This document shows, one piece after another, positions 3,564-9,878 of a stretch of 64,000 bases of DNA (within the stretch, counting starts at the first letter, position 1; each line of letters opens with the position of its first letter). Made by a program: the position numbers and the translations under genes. Location: the NCBI RefSeq assembly GCF_016026235.1, contig NZ_CP065613.1, one strand, 5' to 3'. The notes under the pieces are model-generated. The model did no database searches. It was given only the letters and a program-made list of their open reading frames with translations, and was not told the origin of the DNA. This stretch comes from Escherichia coli (lineage in GTDB: Bacteria > Pseudomonadota > Gammaproteobacteria > Enterobacterales > Enterobacteriaceae).

Positions 3564-3638
<75 letters not shown>

Positions 3639-3641
3639 ATA

Positions 3642-3717
<76 letters not shown>

Positions 3718-3719
3718 GC

Positions 3720-3796
3720 TGGCCCACCACCGAGGACTCGAACCTCGCACCGTCAACTTAGAAGGTTGATGCTCTATCCGGATGAGCTAGTGGTGG
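3720..3796 (-). tRNA. tRNA-Arg (anticodon UCU, reads AGA), phage-type
   Basis: Cloverleaf with anticodon loop CUUCUAA, T-arm CGAGGUUCGAGUCCUCG, encoded CCA; 5' base appears to be C, which is unusual. Confidence 0.7.
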
Positions 3797-3797
3797 T

Positions 3798-3874
3798 TGG
3801 TGGCCCTTGCTGGACTTGAACCAGCGACCTGGCGATTATGAGTCGCTCGCTCTGACCAACTGAGCTAAAGGGCC
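3798..3874 (-). tRNA. tRNA-Ile2-like (anticodon CAU, lysidine-type; could be scored as Met)
   Basis: GGCCCUUUAGCUCAGUUGGUCAGAGCGAGCGACUCAUAAUCGCCAGGUCGCUGGUUCAAGUCCAGCAAGGGCCACCA, close to E. coli ileX-type tRNA. Confidence 0.75.
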
Positions 3875-4073: not shown

Positions 4074-4490
4074 TCAGGGATGTTCAATATATTTGTCCAT
4101 TTCTAACCGGACACCCAACATCATCAACATTCCTTCCACCACCCCCTCGGCTTTTTGTAGCTTCTTTCCTATATAACCATCTGAGCATCCATGCTTCCGC
4201 GCCAGCGTCATGAATGTCATCCCAAACACGTAGTAGTCAACCAGCAAGTCATGTAGATCGTTGTTGTTCCGGTTAAGGCGGGCCATACACCCACATATAA
4301 CCATCGCGTCATCGTCACAGCATTGCGGGCGGGATTTTACTTTTGAAGGGATTAATCCCTTAAAACCGGCAGCAATGGACGACCAGGTCACATCCTCATG
4401 ATTATTAGCCACCCACGCGCCCCAGCGCTCAAGAACCTGCTGAATATCACGCATCACTGTCTTTACCCCTGTCCCATCCACGATGAACAA
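4074..4490 (-). CDS. Q: late antiterminator Q (phage 21/933W-type)
   Basis: 138 aa with Cys-rich zinc-finger-like core ([16 protein letters not shown]) and position immediately upstream of terminator and lysis genes. Confidence 0.75.
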
Positions 4491-4741: not shown

Positions 4742-4999
4742 TCAGCGCAGCGCCTCCTGCACCAGTTTTTCAAACTTTCCGACTCTGGTTTCCAGCTCTG
4801 CCACACAGTCCACCAGCTCATCTACTGCTTTCTGTGCGCGATGCTTCGCCTGCATCAGTTCCCGAAGCGCGGGTACCATATCTTTACGGATAGCGTCTTT
4901 TGTTATGCCCGTTTTTTCGAGTTGTTCAGCATGACGCAGCATTTCCTGCGCGTGTTTACGCAATTGTTCAGGGGTAAAAGTCATTGTCTGGTTGTTCAA
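4742..4999 (-). CDS. hypothetical coiled-coil protein (nin-region)
   Basis: 85-aa ORF whose start overlaps the DnaB-like stop (ATGA coupling). Confidence 0.5.
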   Translation of the reverse strand: MNNQTMTFTPEQLRKHAQEMLRHAEQLEKTGITKDAIRKDMVPALRELMQAKHRAQKAVDELVDCVAELETRVGKFEKLVQEALR

Positions 5000-6387
5000 A
5001 AGAAACGCTCCATCTTACTGCTGTCAGTTCGTTTATTACTGTATCTGCGCGGATTGCCGGGCTTCATGGGAGTGGAAAGCACCCGTGCACTTTCCTGGTC
5101 CACAGGCAGAAAATGTCCGTTATAAAAACGCCGGTAAATCGTTCCCAGAGAACCGTTACGTTGTTTCGTGATATTGATTTCTGCGATGCCCCTGGCCTGC
5201 GTATCCGGGTTGTACACTTCATCCCTGTAAAGCATCAGAATGATGTCTGCATCCGCCTCTATTTCTCCGGAATTTTTCAGGTCTGAGTTCATGGGACGTT
5301 TATTGGGTCTGGACTCCACACCGCGGGAGAGCTGGCTCAGCGCAATCAACGGAAAACCACCGGATTTTGCCAGGCCTTTAAGCCCCTTTGAGATTTCACC
5401 CACGGCAAGGTCATGACGCCCCGTGGTTCGGGTTTTTATCAGCCCGAGATAATCAACCACCACCAGCGCCGTTTCCGGATATTTAATCAGGTGGTGTTTC
5501 GTTGTTGCGCATATCTCATCAATGGCCAGGTTCGCCTGGTCCACCATCCAGATATTGCGCCCGGTCATCCGCCCCACCCCTTGTGAGAAACGCGCCCAGT
5601 CTTCATCTTCAAAGTGAGCCACAGATTTCAGGCGTGATACTGGCATCCCTCCAGCCGCAGACACCATACGTTCACCAATCTGGATGTTCGCCATCTCCAT
5701 GGTGAACAGAAGCACACCATGCCCCTGCTCAGTCACCTTGTCGATGATGTCCAGCGCAAGTTCGGTTTTCCCCATCGAAGGACGGGCGGCAATGAATACC
5801 AGGTCTCCGGGCTCCATACCGCCTGTTTTTGCGTCCAGTTCATCAATACCGGTCATCAACGTCCTGGATTTCTCCAGCCCCTGATTCCGGCATTCAACAC
5901 GCTCAACCACTTCCGGAAGCACATCATCAATATGTACCGGCTGAATGACGCCCTTTCCTGTCGACAGTGTGACCATCATGTTCTGCGCATCCTTCAGGGC
6001 ATCTTCAGCTGCTTCACAGGTATGCGCATCACGTAATTTCTGCAGCGCCTCATTCAGTGTTTTTTCTGCATCGCGCAGTGCGGCATTGCGCCGCAACGCT
6101 GCAACATAGTGCTCCAGTGAAGACTTCACCCAGGTTTTACGCCCGGTATCAGTAATCACCGGGGCAAGTTCCGGCATCTCATTACACAACAGCACGGGGT
6201 CAATCACTCCTGAAACACGGGCCTGTCTGCAGATGCCCGTATAGATATCCTGATACGCTCGTACAGAAAAAACGTCCGCTGGCAGTGTGGCCAGAATATC
6301 CATCACTTCAGGATCTGCTCCGCGCAGAAAGAACGCGCCGATGACAGCGCCTTCAAGGTCATCGTTACGCCATACTGGAGTTGTCAT
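4996..6387 (-). CDS. DnaB-family replicative DNA helicase
   Basis: 463 aa; C-terminal RecA-like ATPase with Walker A (ARPSMGKT) and DnaB-type motifs; start overlaps loader stop. Confidence 0.9.
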   Translation of the reverse strand: MTTPVWRNDDLEGAVIGAFFLRGADPEVMDILATLPADVFSVRAYQDIYTGICRQARVSGVIDPVLLCNEMPELAPVITDTGRKTWVKSSLEHYVAALRRNAALRDAEKTLNEALQKLRDAHTCEAAEDALKDAQNMMVTLSTGKGVIQPVHIDDVLPEVVERVECRNQGLEKSRTLMTGIDELDAKTGGMEPGDLVFIAARPSMGKTELALDIIDKVTEQGHGVLLFTMEMANIQIGERMVSAAGGMPVSRLKSVAHFEDEDWARFSQGVGRMTGRNIWMVDQANLAIDEICATTKHHLIKYPETALVVVDYLGLIKTRTTGRHDLAVGEISKGLKGLAKSGGFPLIALSQLSRGVESRPNKRPMNSDLKNSGEIEADADIILMLYRDEVYNPDTQARGIAEINITKQRNGSLGTIYRRFYNGHFLPVDQESARVLSTPMKPGNPRRYSNKRTDSSKMERFF

Positions 6388-7271
6388 GCAGCCACACCTC
6401 TGATACGAGAACGGTAACTGGGCCAGTTAAACGACAACCAGTTGCGTCCCCCGTCTGTGATCCTGTCGGCAATTCGGGGACTGATGAACGCCCACAACTC
6501 TTCCGGTGAGAGGTTACTGATCAGAATGGTGGGCAAGATACTTTCGTACCTGGCGTTGATAATTTCCTGCAAAATAGCCATTTCAGCCGCGCTGCCAAAC
6601 TGAACGCCAACTTCGTCGATGATCAGCAAATCCATTGACGCATAACGCTCAATAACTTCATCCGCTGTTTTTTCGCTGTCATTCCGCCAGCAATTTTTCA
6701 CAGCACGGGTAAGGCGCATCACGTCGGTGATCTCCACACTGGCCAGATAGTTACGGATGATGTGTTTTGCCATTGATACCGCCAGATGATTTTTCCCGGT
6801 TCCGCAACTGCCGGTCATAACAAGACTGGTACCGTTCTCCAGCATATCTGGCCAGTTCTCCGCATAGCGGCGACAGGCCGCAAGATTCCTGGCTGCGTCA
6901 GGATTAACCTCCAGATAATTATCAAACTCGCAGTCCCGAAAACGCAGGGCAATTCCGGCGTTATCAGTCAGCTCTTCCGCCTTGATGGACGACAGCTCCA
7001 TGGTCAAATCGTTGGCCTCAGCGATTAAGCAGTCAGGGCAGCATGAAATTTTTTCTCTGTCCTCGCCATTACGATCGCTCCACACCAGTATATGCGTGTG
7101 ATATTCGCCATGTTTTTCGCAATATCCGCGACCTTCACGCATCAGGCAGGAACGATAAGGCCATGGCTTTTCGCCCTTCTGAGCAAATGCAATCTCTGCC
7201 CGTAACTCATCCATTCGCGCCTGTAGTCTTTTTTGTTGTTCACGCAGGTTAAACGTCATCATCGCTGTCAC
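6384..7271 (-). CDS. DnaC/IstB-like AAA+ helicase loader
   Basis: Walker A GSCGTGKNHLA, Walker B LLIIDEVG; N-terminal Cys/His-rich region; translationally coupled to helicase. Confidence 0.8.
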   Translation of the reverse strand: MTAMMTFNLREQQKRLQARMDELRAEIAFAQKGEKPWPYRSCLMREGRGYCEKHGEYHTHILVWSDRNGEDREKISCCPDCLIAEANDLTMELSSIKAEELTDNAGIALRFRDCEFDNYLEVNPDAARNLAACRRYAENWPDMLENGTSLVMTGSCGTGKNHLAVSMAKHIIRNYLASVEITDVMRLTRAVKNCWRNDSEKTADEVIERYASMDLLIIDEVGVQFGSAAEMAILQEIINARYESILPTILISNLSPEELWAFISPRIADRITDGGRNWLSFNWPSYRSRIRGVAA

Positions 7272-7272
7272 C

Positions 7273-8181
7273 TCAGAATGTCAGTTTGTCACTGGATTTA
7301 CCGAATTTGTCAGACATGGCTCCCAGGCCAGCCAGGACATCGACCTGTCGCTGTCGCCCACCTCCGGGAGCGGCTGGCTGTTGCCAGAAGTCTTCGAAGT
7401 GACGATCGGGTCCAAAGAACGTCGCTGCCTGCTTCACGAACTGTGTGCCGTTATTTCCTGTGGCACGTACCCAGGCAGCATACCGCTTCACGCCATCAAG
7501 CATGGTCTCCGGTTTTATTCCCTCCCTGATACGGGCTTTCCAGGCTTTGAAGGCTGCTGACTTGGAATTGCCACCAGCACGTTTGGGATATTCCTGCCAG
7601 GCCTGTTCAAATTCCGGTGAATATTCCTGTCGGGCAGAACGCGCTGGTGCAGACGCGTCAGCGGATGCGCCAATAGTGTTTTTACTCTCTGTAGTATTCT
7701 CTGAAGTAATCTCTGTTGTATTCTCTGTAAGATCGAAATTGGTTTTCCCTTCTCCGCGGCGAGGGGTTTCCCGTGTCCGCGGTGAAGGCTTTCCCTCCTC
7801 CGCGAAATTGGGTTTTACAGTTTCCCGAAAACGGGTTTCCCCATTTCGGGAAAACTGATTGTTTTCATTGATAATTTCATTAAGGCGCTCACAATCTATA
7901 CGGTAGAACATTTTGTGCTCAAGACGCTTGTTGGTTTCAACCAAAATGCCTCTGGACACAAGATGCTTACGCGCTACAGCCTGTTGTTCAAATGTAAGTC
8001 CGGTTTCGTGTTGTATCTCTTCACGCGTTTTATGTACGCCTTCCGCTGCATGTGCTTTATCCTGCCAGTAAAAAATCTGACCAAAGAAAATAACAGCGTG
8101 CGGACTTCCCATGTATTTAACGAGCCCAGGGTAATAAGCAACCGGATGCCCAAAATCGAGCAGAAGATCAGACGGACGCAT
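7273..8181 (-). CDS. O-like replication initiator (replisome organiser)
   Basis: Position upstream of loader/helicase; central region encodes aa repeats created by DNA iterons; ATG at 8181 with SD GGAGGTGG. Confidence 0.7.
   Translation of the reverse strand: MRPSDLLLDFGHPVAYYPGLVKYMGSPHAVIFFGQIFYWQDKAHAAEGVHKTREEIQHETGLTFEQQAVARKHLVSRGILVETNKRLEHKMFYRIDCERLNEIINENNQFSRNGETRFRETVKPNFAEEGKPSPRTRETPRRGEGKTNFDLTENTTEITSENTTESKNTIGASADASAPARSARQEYSPEFEQAWQEYPKRAGGNSKSAAFKAWKARIREGIKPETMLDGVKRYAAWVRATGNNGTQFVKQAATFFGPDRHFEDFWQQPAAPGGGRQRQVDVLAGLGAMSDKFGKSSDKLTF
7686..7855. repeat. phage origin-like iterons inside the O-like gene
   Basis: Four 12-bp direct repeats TCTCTGNNGTAN (7686-7730) followed by about five ~23-bp repeats of TTTCCC..TCCGCGG..GGG type (7745-7855). 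Confidence 0.6.
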
Positions 8182-8401
8182 AACCACCTCCCAGGCGTTT
8201 AAACATTTTTCCGGACTGAAACGCCACCAGCGGATAACTCAGGGTATGAGTACGTCCCTGAACCTGGCAGACAACCTTCTGGCTTTCTGTATTGACCAGG
8301 CAAACCCGCAGAACGTGACCGTTGCTGGTGGTGAACCACTGCCCCACTCGGGGGCAACGGTTGTATCGGTGATACAGGGAATTAACGACGCGGCGAATCA
8401 T
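8168..8401 (-). CDS. hypothetical small protein
   Basis: 77-aa ORF with SD GGAGG, start/stop overlaps with both neighbours. Confidence 0.4.
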   Translation of the reverse strand: MIRRVVNSLYHRYNRCPRVGQWFTTSNGHVLRVCLVNTESQKVVCQVQGRTHTLSYPLVAFQSGKMFKRLGGGYASV

Positions 8402-8760
8402 GGGCGCACCTCCCATTGATTACGACGGAAAACAGTGTGATTCAGGTTGGTTTCAGCCTCATGGAATGCTTCAATACAGCTCTCGTAGTACCGCATTGTG
8501 CGCAGACTTAACCCAAGCTGAAGCATCATCAGCCCATCAAGGGTGATGTAATAACCACGCAGGGAATCGCCATAGATGTGATAAGTGCCAGGTATGAAAT
8601 TGCGGGTAAAAAATTCGCGCGAGCAGTTCAGGTACTCGATTTTGTCGACGATATTCTGGTGCATGCGCTTGAAGTGGCAGGCAACATGCAAAGAAAAAAT
8701 AACGGCCTTGCCGTTGACGGTCTCAATTTTGAGGAATGAGTGGGTTGGGACTGTAGCCAT
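8398..8760 (-). CDS. hypothetical protein
   Basis: 120-aa ORF from ATG with SD GGAGG at 8760; track ORF extends upstream through low-complexity sequence, judged non-coding. Confidence 0.45.
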   Translation of the reverse strand: MATVPTHSFLKIETVNGKAVIFSLHVACHFKRMHQNIVDKIEYLNCSREFFTRNFIPGTYHIYGDSLRGYYITLDGLMMLQLGLSLRTMRYYESCIEAFHEAETNLNHTVFRRNQWEVRP

Positions 8761-9053
8761 GATGGCAGCCTCCGTTGACTGTGGAAAACTTCCACCACCG
8801 GAGGTGCAAATCTCGCTGGTGGCGGACTGAACAGGGTTTGCACTACCGGCGTCAACGGAGACCGGCGAGCCTTTCGGCTCCCCTGCCCAGCCCACCATAA
8901 TTCTGGCGTGCGTGAGCGCGGACGATAAAAAAGACGCTGGCGCGTCGTATATCGCCGTTGACAATTCCGGGGTGCAAATCCCGGCACCCGCTTTATAAGG
9001 TGCAGAGACAGTGTAACGTCCCGAAATTGCAGAATCAATATCTTGGAGAACAA

Positions 9054-9878
9054 TCATGCAGCACCCGCCAGTTCTTTATCGTGAGTAAATTCGCCATTCC
9101 AGTTTCTCTTCATGGGTAATGCACCTCTAAGATACTGGCGATAAATCCAGACCGCCCCTTTCTGGAGAAGAACTGGTGTGTACGAATAAAACCCTTCTTC
9201 ATAACCTGAATCGATATAGTGGTGACGTTCGGTCAGATACAGATCTCGGGCATATGCCTTTACACGCCATGCGGGGCTTCGCGATTCAGGACGCTCGTCA
9301 TAAAGCCAGTTGTGAGCCTCCAGAAATGCTGTGATGCGCTGAACATTTACTCCATTAAGTTGCTTGCAGAACTGAACCGGTGTCATGCCAGGCTGGAATA
9401 AATTTTCCAGATGTTCGATGTATTGGGCCTGACGATGAACGTAACTAATTGCTCTGTTTTTAGCCTCATATTCGTCCGCCCAGGCACGGGCAGCAGCAGC
9501 CGGATCGCTAAAATCTGGTAGGGATGCCATTGTGGTAAGACAGTAATTCCCCGTTTTACGAATTGAGGGAATTACCTCCGATGTAATCCACCGTTTAAAA
9601 CGTCTTGCCTGTTTTTTTCGACTTTTGATAATCAGCGCATAGAGCCCGGATTCATTGACCAGCAAAGGCTTACGTCCCGAACCTAAGTAATCCTTATATT
9701 CGGTTTTATCTTCATCATCGATGGACTGAAGGGAGATAGCAGTATTTGTCAGCCCCAGCGCGTTACATATATCCACGGCAAAAAACCATGGTGTTGAATC
9801 AATGACCACACTACGAACTGATGACAACAATTCACCAGTGCTTGATTTAAAATCGAAAACTTTGATATTGTTTTTCAC
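9054..9878 (-). CDS. Bro-N / KilA-C (ANT) family antirepressor
   Basis: Bro-N motif KVFDFKSSTGELLSSVRSVVIDSTPWFFAVDICNALGL; GTG start at 9878 preceded by GGAGA; C-terminal antirepressor-like domain. Confidence 0.75.
   Translation of the reverse strand: MKNNIKVFDFKSSTGELLSSVRSVVIDSTPWFFAVDICNALGLTNTAISLQSIDDEDKTEYKDYLGSGRKPLLVNESGLYALIIKSRKKQARRFKRWITSEVIPSIRKTGNYCLTTMASLPDFSDPAAAARAWADEYEAKNRAISYVHRQAQYIEHLENLFQPGMTPVQFCKQLNGVNVQRITAFLEAHNWLYDERPESRSPAWRVKAYARDLYLTERHHYIDSGYEEGFYSYTPVLLQKGAVWIYRQYLRGALPMKRNWNGEFTHDKELAGAA

Follow-up and report, generated by a model that had tools for sequence, protein, structure and literature searches.

The window analysed here is a 64-kb stretch of Escherichia coli DNA that includes a lambdoid prophage closely related to Shiga toxin (Stx)-converting phages. 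In the early rightward operon of this prophage, the minus strand between the TGA of a Bro-N/Ant-type gene (9056-9054) and the ATG at 8760 of an open reading frame (ORF) with a Rha domain carries two small RNAs of known families: an IsrK-like RNA, which ends in an intrinsic terminator and is preceded by a putative promoter, and a C4 antisense RNA of the P4 CI type. Both are crossed by a 219-aa (amino acid) ORF that runs on into the Rha-domain ORF in the same frame. With good confidence, we regard this region as an RNA immunity or attenuation module of the P4 CI/P1 c4 family, residing in a lambdoid early operon. Modules of this kind are already known, have long been characterised and are represented in Rfam; here, the module is unannotated as RNA. 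The original prediction, made from the sequence alone, had described positions 8761-9053 as intergenic. The stretch as such is real, but the downstream ATG lies at 8760 and not at 8761, and the standard annotation leaves no gap because the 219-aa ORF spans 9057-8398.

The region differs from its surroundings both in composition and in repeat content. Its GC content is 0.56-0.62 over 8725-9024 versus 0.43-0.50 in the flanks, in agreement with the GC-richness reported earlier. The motif GATTTGCAC has two exact copies in the window, both on the minus strand (8804-8812 and 8972-8980), and an inverted copy with one mismatch (GGTTTGCAC on the plus strand) lies at 8835-8843. The direct repeats had been placed about 160 bp apart; they are indeed present, with a start-to-start spacing of 168 bp. 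When one mismatch is allowed, the window holds 25 copies where 24.5 are expected, so the signal lies in three copies falling within 180 bp of one another. A second trio, GTCAACGG[A/C]G, is found at 8770-8779 and 8953-8962 on the minus strand and inverted at 8851-8860. These are the only three copies in the window and all fall within the region, against an expectation of 0.28, and none of 100 shuffles yielded three. The repeated motif that had attracted attention is thus genuine: its direct copies are RNA target boxes (a1 and a2), and its inverted copy is the matching box a′ inside the C4 RNA (box names a and b follow the annotation of the P1 record NC_005856).

The two RNAs are matched over their full length by Rfam models, both above the curated thresholds, in agreement with the structured RNA that had been offered as one of two options. 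The C4 model (RF01695) reaches 80.1 bits (threshold 45; model positions 1-87 of 87) and the isrK model (RF01394) 61.8 bits against 50 (positions 1-77 of 77), and these matches are the only such copies in the window. The hairpins noticed earlier belong to a strand-specific structure: on the minus strand, the 88-nt C4 stretch folds with -50.7 kcal/mol (z = -5.3), versus -34.1 kcal/mol (z = -1.4) on the plus strand. This fold has the shape of the family: a closing stem of 17 bp encloses two hairpins as well as an unpaired stretch. The IsrK-like RNA consists of hairpin 1 (9003-8984), hairpin 2 (8983-8968), box b1 and the terminator.

The C4 RNA presents box b′ in a hairpin loop and box a′ in a single-stranded stretch, and each has a potential partner both upstream (a1, b1) and downstream (a2, b2). 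Pairing of b′ with b2 is perfect (10/10 bp) and overlaps the GGAGG that stands 8 nt before ATG 8760, while a′ and a2 share a complementary core of 7 bp. The minimum free energy fold of a read-through RNA (9003-8745) contains both pairings in cis, with 10 bp for b′:b2 and 6 bp for a′:a2.

Further evidence on these boxes comes from related phages. Covariation analysis across relatives, which the original prediction had named as a check, was performed on 80 viral contigs with a gene for a protein 80-98% identical to the 120-aa Rha-domain protein; all of these contigs carry the isrK-C4 module, and they contain 58 distinct sequences of the region. Variation among these relatives is concentrated in the six boxes and is strictly concerted. 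The b′:b2 helix is 95.3% paired, with 7 of its 11 pairs changed on both sides, and the a′:a2 core is 95.5% paired, with compensatory changes in all five of its variable pairs; taken together, a′/b′ with a2/b2 are paired in ~95% of cells and 12 of the 16 varying core pairs are compensatory. The upstream boxes follow the same pattern (a1:a′ 91% paired; b1:b′ 88% paired, 8/11 pairs changed on both sides). The observed box pairing was matched in 0/500 shuffles, and shifting the partner by 1-3 columns lowered pairing to ~40%. Cognate duplexes have average energies of -9.7 (a) and -16.6 (b) kcal/mol, compared to -3.3 and -6.8 kcal/mol for non-cognate ones. The scaffold is conserved as well: the C4 closing stem and internal hairpins are 100% paired, with eight compensatory pairs in the long stem (helix 4) and four in hairpin 1 (helix 5), and IsrK hairpin 1 is likewise 100% paired, with compensatory changes in all 6 of its pairs. 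Nine a′ variants and 11 b′ variants occur in 19 combinations among the 58 loci, which are otherwise 80-98% similar, indicating that the a and b boxes reassort independently. Such concerted variation is the pattern expected of specificity determinants shared by an antisense RNA and its target.

Table 1. Features of the RNA module and of the prophage early region (window coordinates).
Feature	Position	Strand	Basis or remark
RNA module	8761-9053	-	
Putative internal sigma-70 promoter	9010-9038	-	-35 TTGATT 9038-9033, 17-nt spacer, -10 TACACT 9015-9010
IsrK / P4-seqA-like small RNA	8927-9003	-	Rfam RF01394 isrK
Box a1 GAUUUGCAC	8972-8980	-	Loop of IsrK hairpin 2; upstream copy of a′ target
Box b1 GUCAACGGCGA	8952-8962	-	Upstream copy of b′ target
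Intrinsic terminator GACGCGCCAGCGUC + UUUUUU	8927-8946	-	Terminator scan; 3′ hairpin of isrK model
C4 / P4-CI-type antisense RNA	8815-8902	-	Rfam RF01695
Conserved AUG in C4 5′ end	8896-8898	-	Invariant in 58-relative alignment; in frame with Rha ORF
Box b′ UCUCCGUUGAC	8851-8861	-	Loop of C4 hairpin 2; partners b2, b1
Box a′ GUGCAAACC	8835-8843	-	Single-stranded stretch 3′ of C4 hairpin 2; partners a2, a1
Box a2 GAUUUGCAC	8804-8812	-	Immediately 3′ of C4; GATTTGCAC copy
Box b2 GUCAACGGAGG	8769-8779	-	Overlaps Shine-Dalgarno GGAGG (8773-8769) of Rha-domain ORF
Rha-domain ORF, 120 aa	8398-8760	-	Pfam PF09669 Phage_pRha, stand-alone; PHROG 995/821/518; position of P4 kil
Long 219-aa ORF, 'Ash family protein'	8398-9057	-	Crosses promoter, IsrK-like RNA and C4; in frame with Rha ORF
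CI-like repressor	11523-12218	+	
Cro-like gene	11129-11395	-	
Ant-like gene	9931-10704	-	
Bro-N gene	9054-~9878	-	
Small ORF after Rha-domain ORF	~8168-8401	-	
O-like replication initiator	7273-8187	-	
DnaC-like loader	6384-7271	-	
DnaB-like helicase	4996-6387	-	
Q antiterminator	4074-4490	-	
Four tRNA genes in row	3567-3874	-	Just downstream of Q-like gene

The region is present in ~370-380 phage records, including phiP27, SfV and many Stx-converting phages. Of 5,426 complete E. coli genomes, 559 contain copies of this 401-bp region, in up to six places per genome. Some related contigs (L049, L059, L037, L065; L120, L130, L165, L175) carry two tandem isrK-C4 modules that differ in a and/or b type; nothing but the first ~22 Rha codons stands between the modules, and a single open frame spans the whole. 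A third copy of GTCAACGG, located at 8711-8721 within the Rha ORF, was considered as a further box and rejected, as its sequence is fixed by VNG codons regardless of the b-box type. Beside it, 45 nt into the Rha ORF, lies a terminator-like hairpin (AACGGCAAGGCCGTT plus a T-run, 8691-8715, minus strand); this hairpin is weak, poorly conserved and unproven, and the T-run is weak in most relatives.

The RNA module is embedded in a conserved open frame. The ORFs over the region had been said to look non-coding, but the region is not plainly so: the Rha frame has no stop codon across the module in 58/58 sequences, versus 19 distinct stop sites in one of the remaining frames and 16 in the other (35 together), and all segment lengths are multiples of three, with 240, 243 or 246 nt from the predicted transcription start site to the Rha ATG and 138, 141 or 144 nt from the AUG in the C4 5′ end to the Rha ATG. 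The ATG of the 219-aa ORF (9057-9055) overlaps the TGA of the upstream Bro-N gene, and this ATGA overlap recurs in relatives beside the stop codons of several different upstream genes. An ORF across this region is, therefore, probably not meaningless. Its translation as the N-terminal part of the gene that ends at 8398, which the original prediction had counted as a refutation, would not contradict the RNA reading. A second ATGA joins the stop of this Ash-Rha ORF to the start of a small phrog_1153 ORF (MIRRV...; 8398-8401), and the chain formed with the Bro stop/Ash-Rha start (9054-9057) points to translational coupling through the operon in the direction of the replication genes.

Among 92 more diverse C4 loci, the ORF starting at the C4 AUG is short (≤25 codons, as in P1 and APSE) in 11, of medium length (similar to Gifsy-1 orf45) in 15 and fused to downstream sequence in 66, where it runs for >70 codons; some of the fused ORFs translate implausibly, so that the true downstream frame may differ. 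Upstream open frames of >1 kb in a few relatives were rejected as real fusions because their translations are implausible and of low complexity.

At the protein level, Pfam Phage_ASH (PF10554) matches residues 15-105 of the 219-aa ORF (54.6 bits, 1.7e-14) and Phage_pRha matches residues 122-202. The nucleotides encoding the Phage_ASH-matched residues are those of isrK, C4 and the a2/b2 boxes, as in P4, where the same family also matches the old conceptual 'cI' ORF lying across the CI RNA gene. The coincidence in both elements indicates that the 'Ash domain' is a conceptual translation of the isrK/seqA plus C4/CI module. RefSeq names the 219-aa ORF 'ash family protein', and hit lists show no RNA feature under the Phage_ASH match.

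Transcription of the module may start within this frame. The -10 element TACACT of the putative promoter is followed by 6 nt and then by the first position of the isrK model, giving a predicted start at G9003. The promoter elements are kept in most of the 58 relatives, and the spacing between -10 and isrK model position 1 is identical in P4. We infer that 9010-9038 is the equivalent of P4 PLE and Gifsy-1 PisrK, a call made by manual reading of the sequence and backed by conservation and positional homology.

Among known systems, the closest match is the immunity system of satellite phage P4 (NC_001609). The Rfam C4 model matches P4 CI (74.9 bits) and the isrK model matches the seqA region (60.8 bits). 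P4 has boxes of both types, a and b, but with sequences of its own (GUGAGAA and UUCACAGG). The junction of Shine-Dalgarno sequence and ATG before the nested ORF, GGAGGCTGCCATCATGGCTAC, is identical to that before P4 kil. P4 also has a long frame, the 199-codon eta, whose ATG overlaps the stop codon of the upstream gene and lies upstream of the internal promoter, and which reads through seqA and CI; the 219-aa ORF aligns to Eta residues 17-143 (E = 8e-11), corresponding to the 'Ash' parts. In both elements, replication genes follow the module. However, the product of the nested ORF has a Rha domain (120 aa) here but is Kil (65 aa) in P4, the module resides in a lambdoid prophage with a CI/Cro switch rather than in a P4-like satellite, and the seqA-CI spacer is longer in P4.

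The eta/kil mechanism of P4 is set out in PMC10111431, which cites Forti et al. (1999). The immunity factor of P4 is described as an RNA (PMC10111431, PMC4825925). According to the account in PMC10111431, a constitutive promoter inside eta gives rise to a transcript that CI-seqA interactions bring to an early end and from which CI RNA is processed, and Kil is translated only upon read-through. In the same account, translation of full-length Eta requires an upstream promoter, is coupled to the upstream gene and blocks termination.

The immI region of P1 and P7 belongs to the same RNA family (P1 C4 in NC_005856, 68.8 bits). The order a1, b1, C4, a2, b2 is shared, with all of these elements annotated in P1 along with icd, and in both, b2 borders directly on the ribosome-binding site of the ORF that comes first downstream. 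The sequence AAUUAUGG at the C4 5′ end is conserved between the two, and among the relatives of the prophage the context AAUUAU/GG is conserved at this position. In contrast, the frame opened by the C4 AUG comprises just 14 codons in P1, leaving no ORF through the RNA; icd and ant lie downstream in P1, whereas here a Rha-domain ORF lies downstream and the Ant/Bro genes upstream; and the P1 c4 promoter has a C1 operator, whereas none was identified here. In Hamiltonella phage APSE-8 (LR794148), the depositors annotated isrK and C4, including the a′ and b′ regions of the latter, followed by Bro-N and Rha genes. There, the ORF from the C4 AUG has only 15 codons, and the record swaps the names used for P1, calling the box in the loop a′ and the single-stranded one b′.

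In P1 and P4, RNase P processing of a longer transcript releases the C4-type RNA as a stable molecule of ~77 nt. The mature 5′ end of P1 C4 lies within the AUG, between U and G, according to the record annotation. Transferring the P1 boundaries to the prophage predicts a mature C4 RNA at ~8896-8818.

By analogy with these systems, we infer how the module might work. Constitutive transcription from the internal promoter would start at ~9003, and most transcripts would end at the terminator (8946-8927), yielding an IsrK/seqA-like RNA of ~77 nt with boxes a1 and b1. Transcripts that read through would contain C4 (8902-8815) and, as in P1, may be cut in the AUG between U8897 and G8896, resulting in a stable RNA of ~79 nt. 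Its boxes b′ and a′ would then pair with b2 and a2, in cis or in trans, hiding the Shine-Dalgarno sequence of the Rha-domain ORF, which would, therefore, not be translated. Untranslated RNA from the internal promoter is expected to terminate prematurely, as in P4 and P1, so that in the lysogen the downstream replication genes stay silent. RNA made from the early promoter farther upstream would instead carry ATG 9057, coupled to the Bro stop codon, so that ribosomes could translate the whole 219-aa ORF; their passage would melt the RNA structures, rendering transcription from the early promoter insensitive to the RNA repressor, as with P4 eta. The IsrK-like RNA could compete for the C4 boxes through a1 and b1, as IsrK does in Gifsy-1, and specificity would be set by the a and b boxes, which differ between related prophages. 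Of this scheme, the RNA family membership, the complementarity and covariation of the boxes, the conserved frame and the gene context are shown here, whereas the promoter, the processing, the termination step, the direction of regulation with the sign of the IsrK effect, and the role of the Rha protein are deduced.

Several observations weigh against this scheme. The Rfam c4-a1b1 model stays below threshold in the window (17.8 versus 46.7 bits), the isrK model covering the same stretch; the a1/b1 call, therefore, rests on the isrK model together with the direct complementarity of the boxes. A consensus promoter scan of 8300-9300 calls no promoter, since the putative one matches only 8 of the 12 consensus positions. 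Co-folding of mature C4 with its target gains only ~1.6 kcal/mol over the separate folds, and with the IsrK-like RNA there is little or no gain, although the tool models neither loop-loop nor kissing complexes, which makes this outcome uninformative. The protein encoded by the regulated Rha ORF has no similarity to P4 Kil, P1 Icd or Gifsy-1 AnrP (E = 0.81 for AnrP) and is unrelated to Ant. Lastly, the net effect observed for the upstream small RNA of Gifsy-1 is activation and not repression (PMC4825925).

This last point forms the basis of a different view of the output. In the Gifsy-1 locus of Salmonella (isrK-orf45-anrP-isrJ), isrK is likewise followed directly by a C4 homologue, and the two loci have in common an internal promoter (a putative one here), a leaky terminator, a small RNA complementary to the C4 region and an AUG in the C4 5′ end, at which orf45 begins. 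A processed RNA, STnc1160, derives from the orf45 region, and IsrK in trans activates anrP translation through orf45 (PMC4825925). A positive switch of this type, which we consider unlikely as the main output, would have the read-through mRNA locked in an inactive cis structure until the IsrK-like RNA, pairing in trans with the C4 region, frees translation from AUG 8898 into the Rha domain, resulting in a 166-aa protein that promotes prophage induction. Besides the shared arrangement and the Gifsy-1 experiments, the invariance of the C4 AUG and its constant frame with the Rha ORF argue for such a switch. However, the C4 AUG has no obvious Shine-Dalgarno sequence, lies in the base of the C4 stem and, in P1, is cut through by processing, whereas ATG 8760 has a strong and conserved GGAGG overlapped by b2. 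Moreover, the frame is open also upstream of the C4 AUG and of the internal start, for which translation from the C4 AUG alone is insufficient. The Gifsy-1 locus differs in position and layout as well: it lies downstream of Q, in the late region, rather than in an early operon upstream of replication genes, and its orf45 is a separate frame of 45 codons with a stop overlapping the anrP ATG, whereas here the frame is fused to the downstream ORF. A positive switch would be compatible with the attenuation module and does not exclude it.

The concerted, pairing-preserving variation of the boxes also argues against two readings that leave RNA aside. That the region is purely the N-terminal 'Ash' domain of an Ash-Rha regulator, with repeats at the protein level and incidental RNA matches, could draw on the ATGA junction of the 219-aa ORF, the Phage_ASH score, the RefSeq name and the frame open in all relatives. 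We find this highly improbable: variable positions alter amino acids freely, yet remain Watson-Crick or G-U paired, both inside the C4 stems and from box to box over as much as 168 nt, full-length matches are obtained with two independent covariance models, and Phage_ASH matches the conceptual P4 'cI' ORF over an RNA gene just as it does here. The 'regulatory site array' of the original prediction survives in the form of RNA target boxes and a covarying antisense box; a DNA operator array, in which direct and inverted copies of GATTTGCAC bind the neighbouring Bro, Rha, CI or Cro protein, is scarcely credible, as the inverted copies coincide precisely with the loop and the unpaired segment of a conserved RNA fold with strand-specific stability, G-U pairs are tolerated (at pair 88/191, 36 sequences have AU and 10 have GU) and the two box sets, independent of each other, reassort freely next to a protein that remains 80-98% identical, even though two direct copies and one inverted copy do lie near regulator genes and concerted changes of the copies could in principle follow the specificity of a protein.

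Recognition of the region as a C4/CI plus IsrK/seqA RNA module gives it a concrete and testable function. In RefSeq and in the records of phiP27, SfV and Stx2_14040, its only label is 'ash family protein' or the N-terminal part of a regulator, and in at least one survey of the regulatory regions of Stx phages the 'Ash domain' figures as a protein domain with unknown function (PMC8951638). As the module lies directly upstream of lambdoid replication genes, control at the RNA level could affect induction and cross-immunity of co-resident prophages. Tentatively, and with some doubt, we speculate that the a and b boxes form a modular, reassorting two-part RNA 'barcode' that decides which co-resident lambdoid or Stx prophages silence, and which ignore, each other's Rha and replication modules, and that the 'Ash domain' is a by-product of an ORF kept open across an RNA gene rather than a folded domain. 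No new class of mechanism is involved, as the principles have been worked out in P1, P4 and Gifsy-1; the modest by-products are the coincidence of the 'Ash domain' with an RNA gene and box diversity of a barcode-like kind, now documented in numbers.

The surrounding genes (Table 1) run from the CI-like repressor through the Cro-like, Ant-like and Bro-N genes to the module, and from there through the replication genes to Q. A row of tRNA genes downstream of Q is a layout typical of Stx-type lambdoid phages. The two Ant/Bro-type ORFs as listed (9054-10076 and 9931-10704) overlap by 146 nt; homology of the downstream one begins at residue 68, so that its true start is probably near 9878. A match to the D12-methyl RNA at 9895-9959 falls far below threshold (21.8 versus 57 bits). 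Far from the prophage early region, the Rfam Peptidase-S11 RNA motif is found at 30581-30661 on the minus strand (72.8 bits against a threshold of 34.8).

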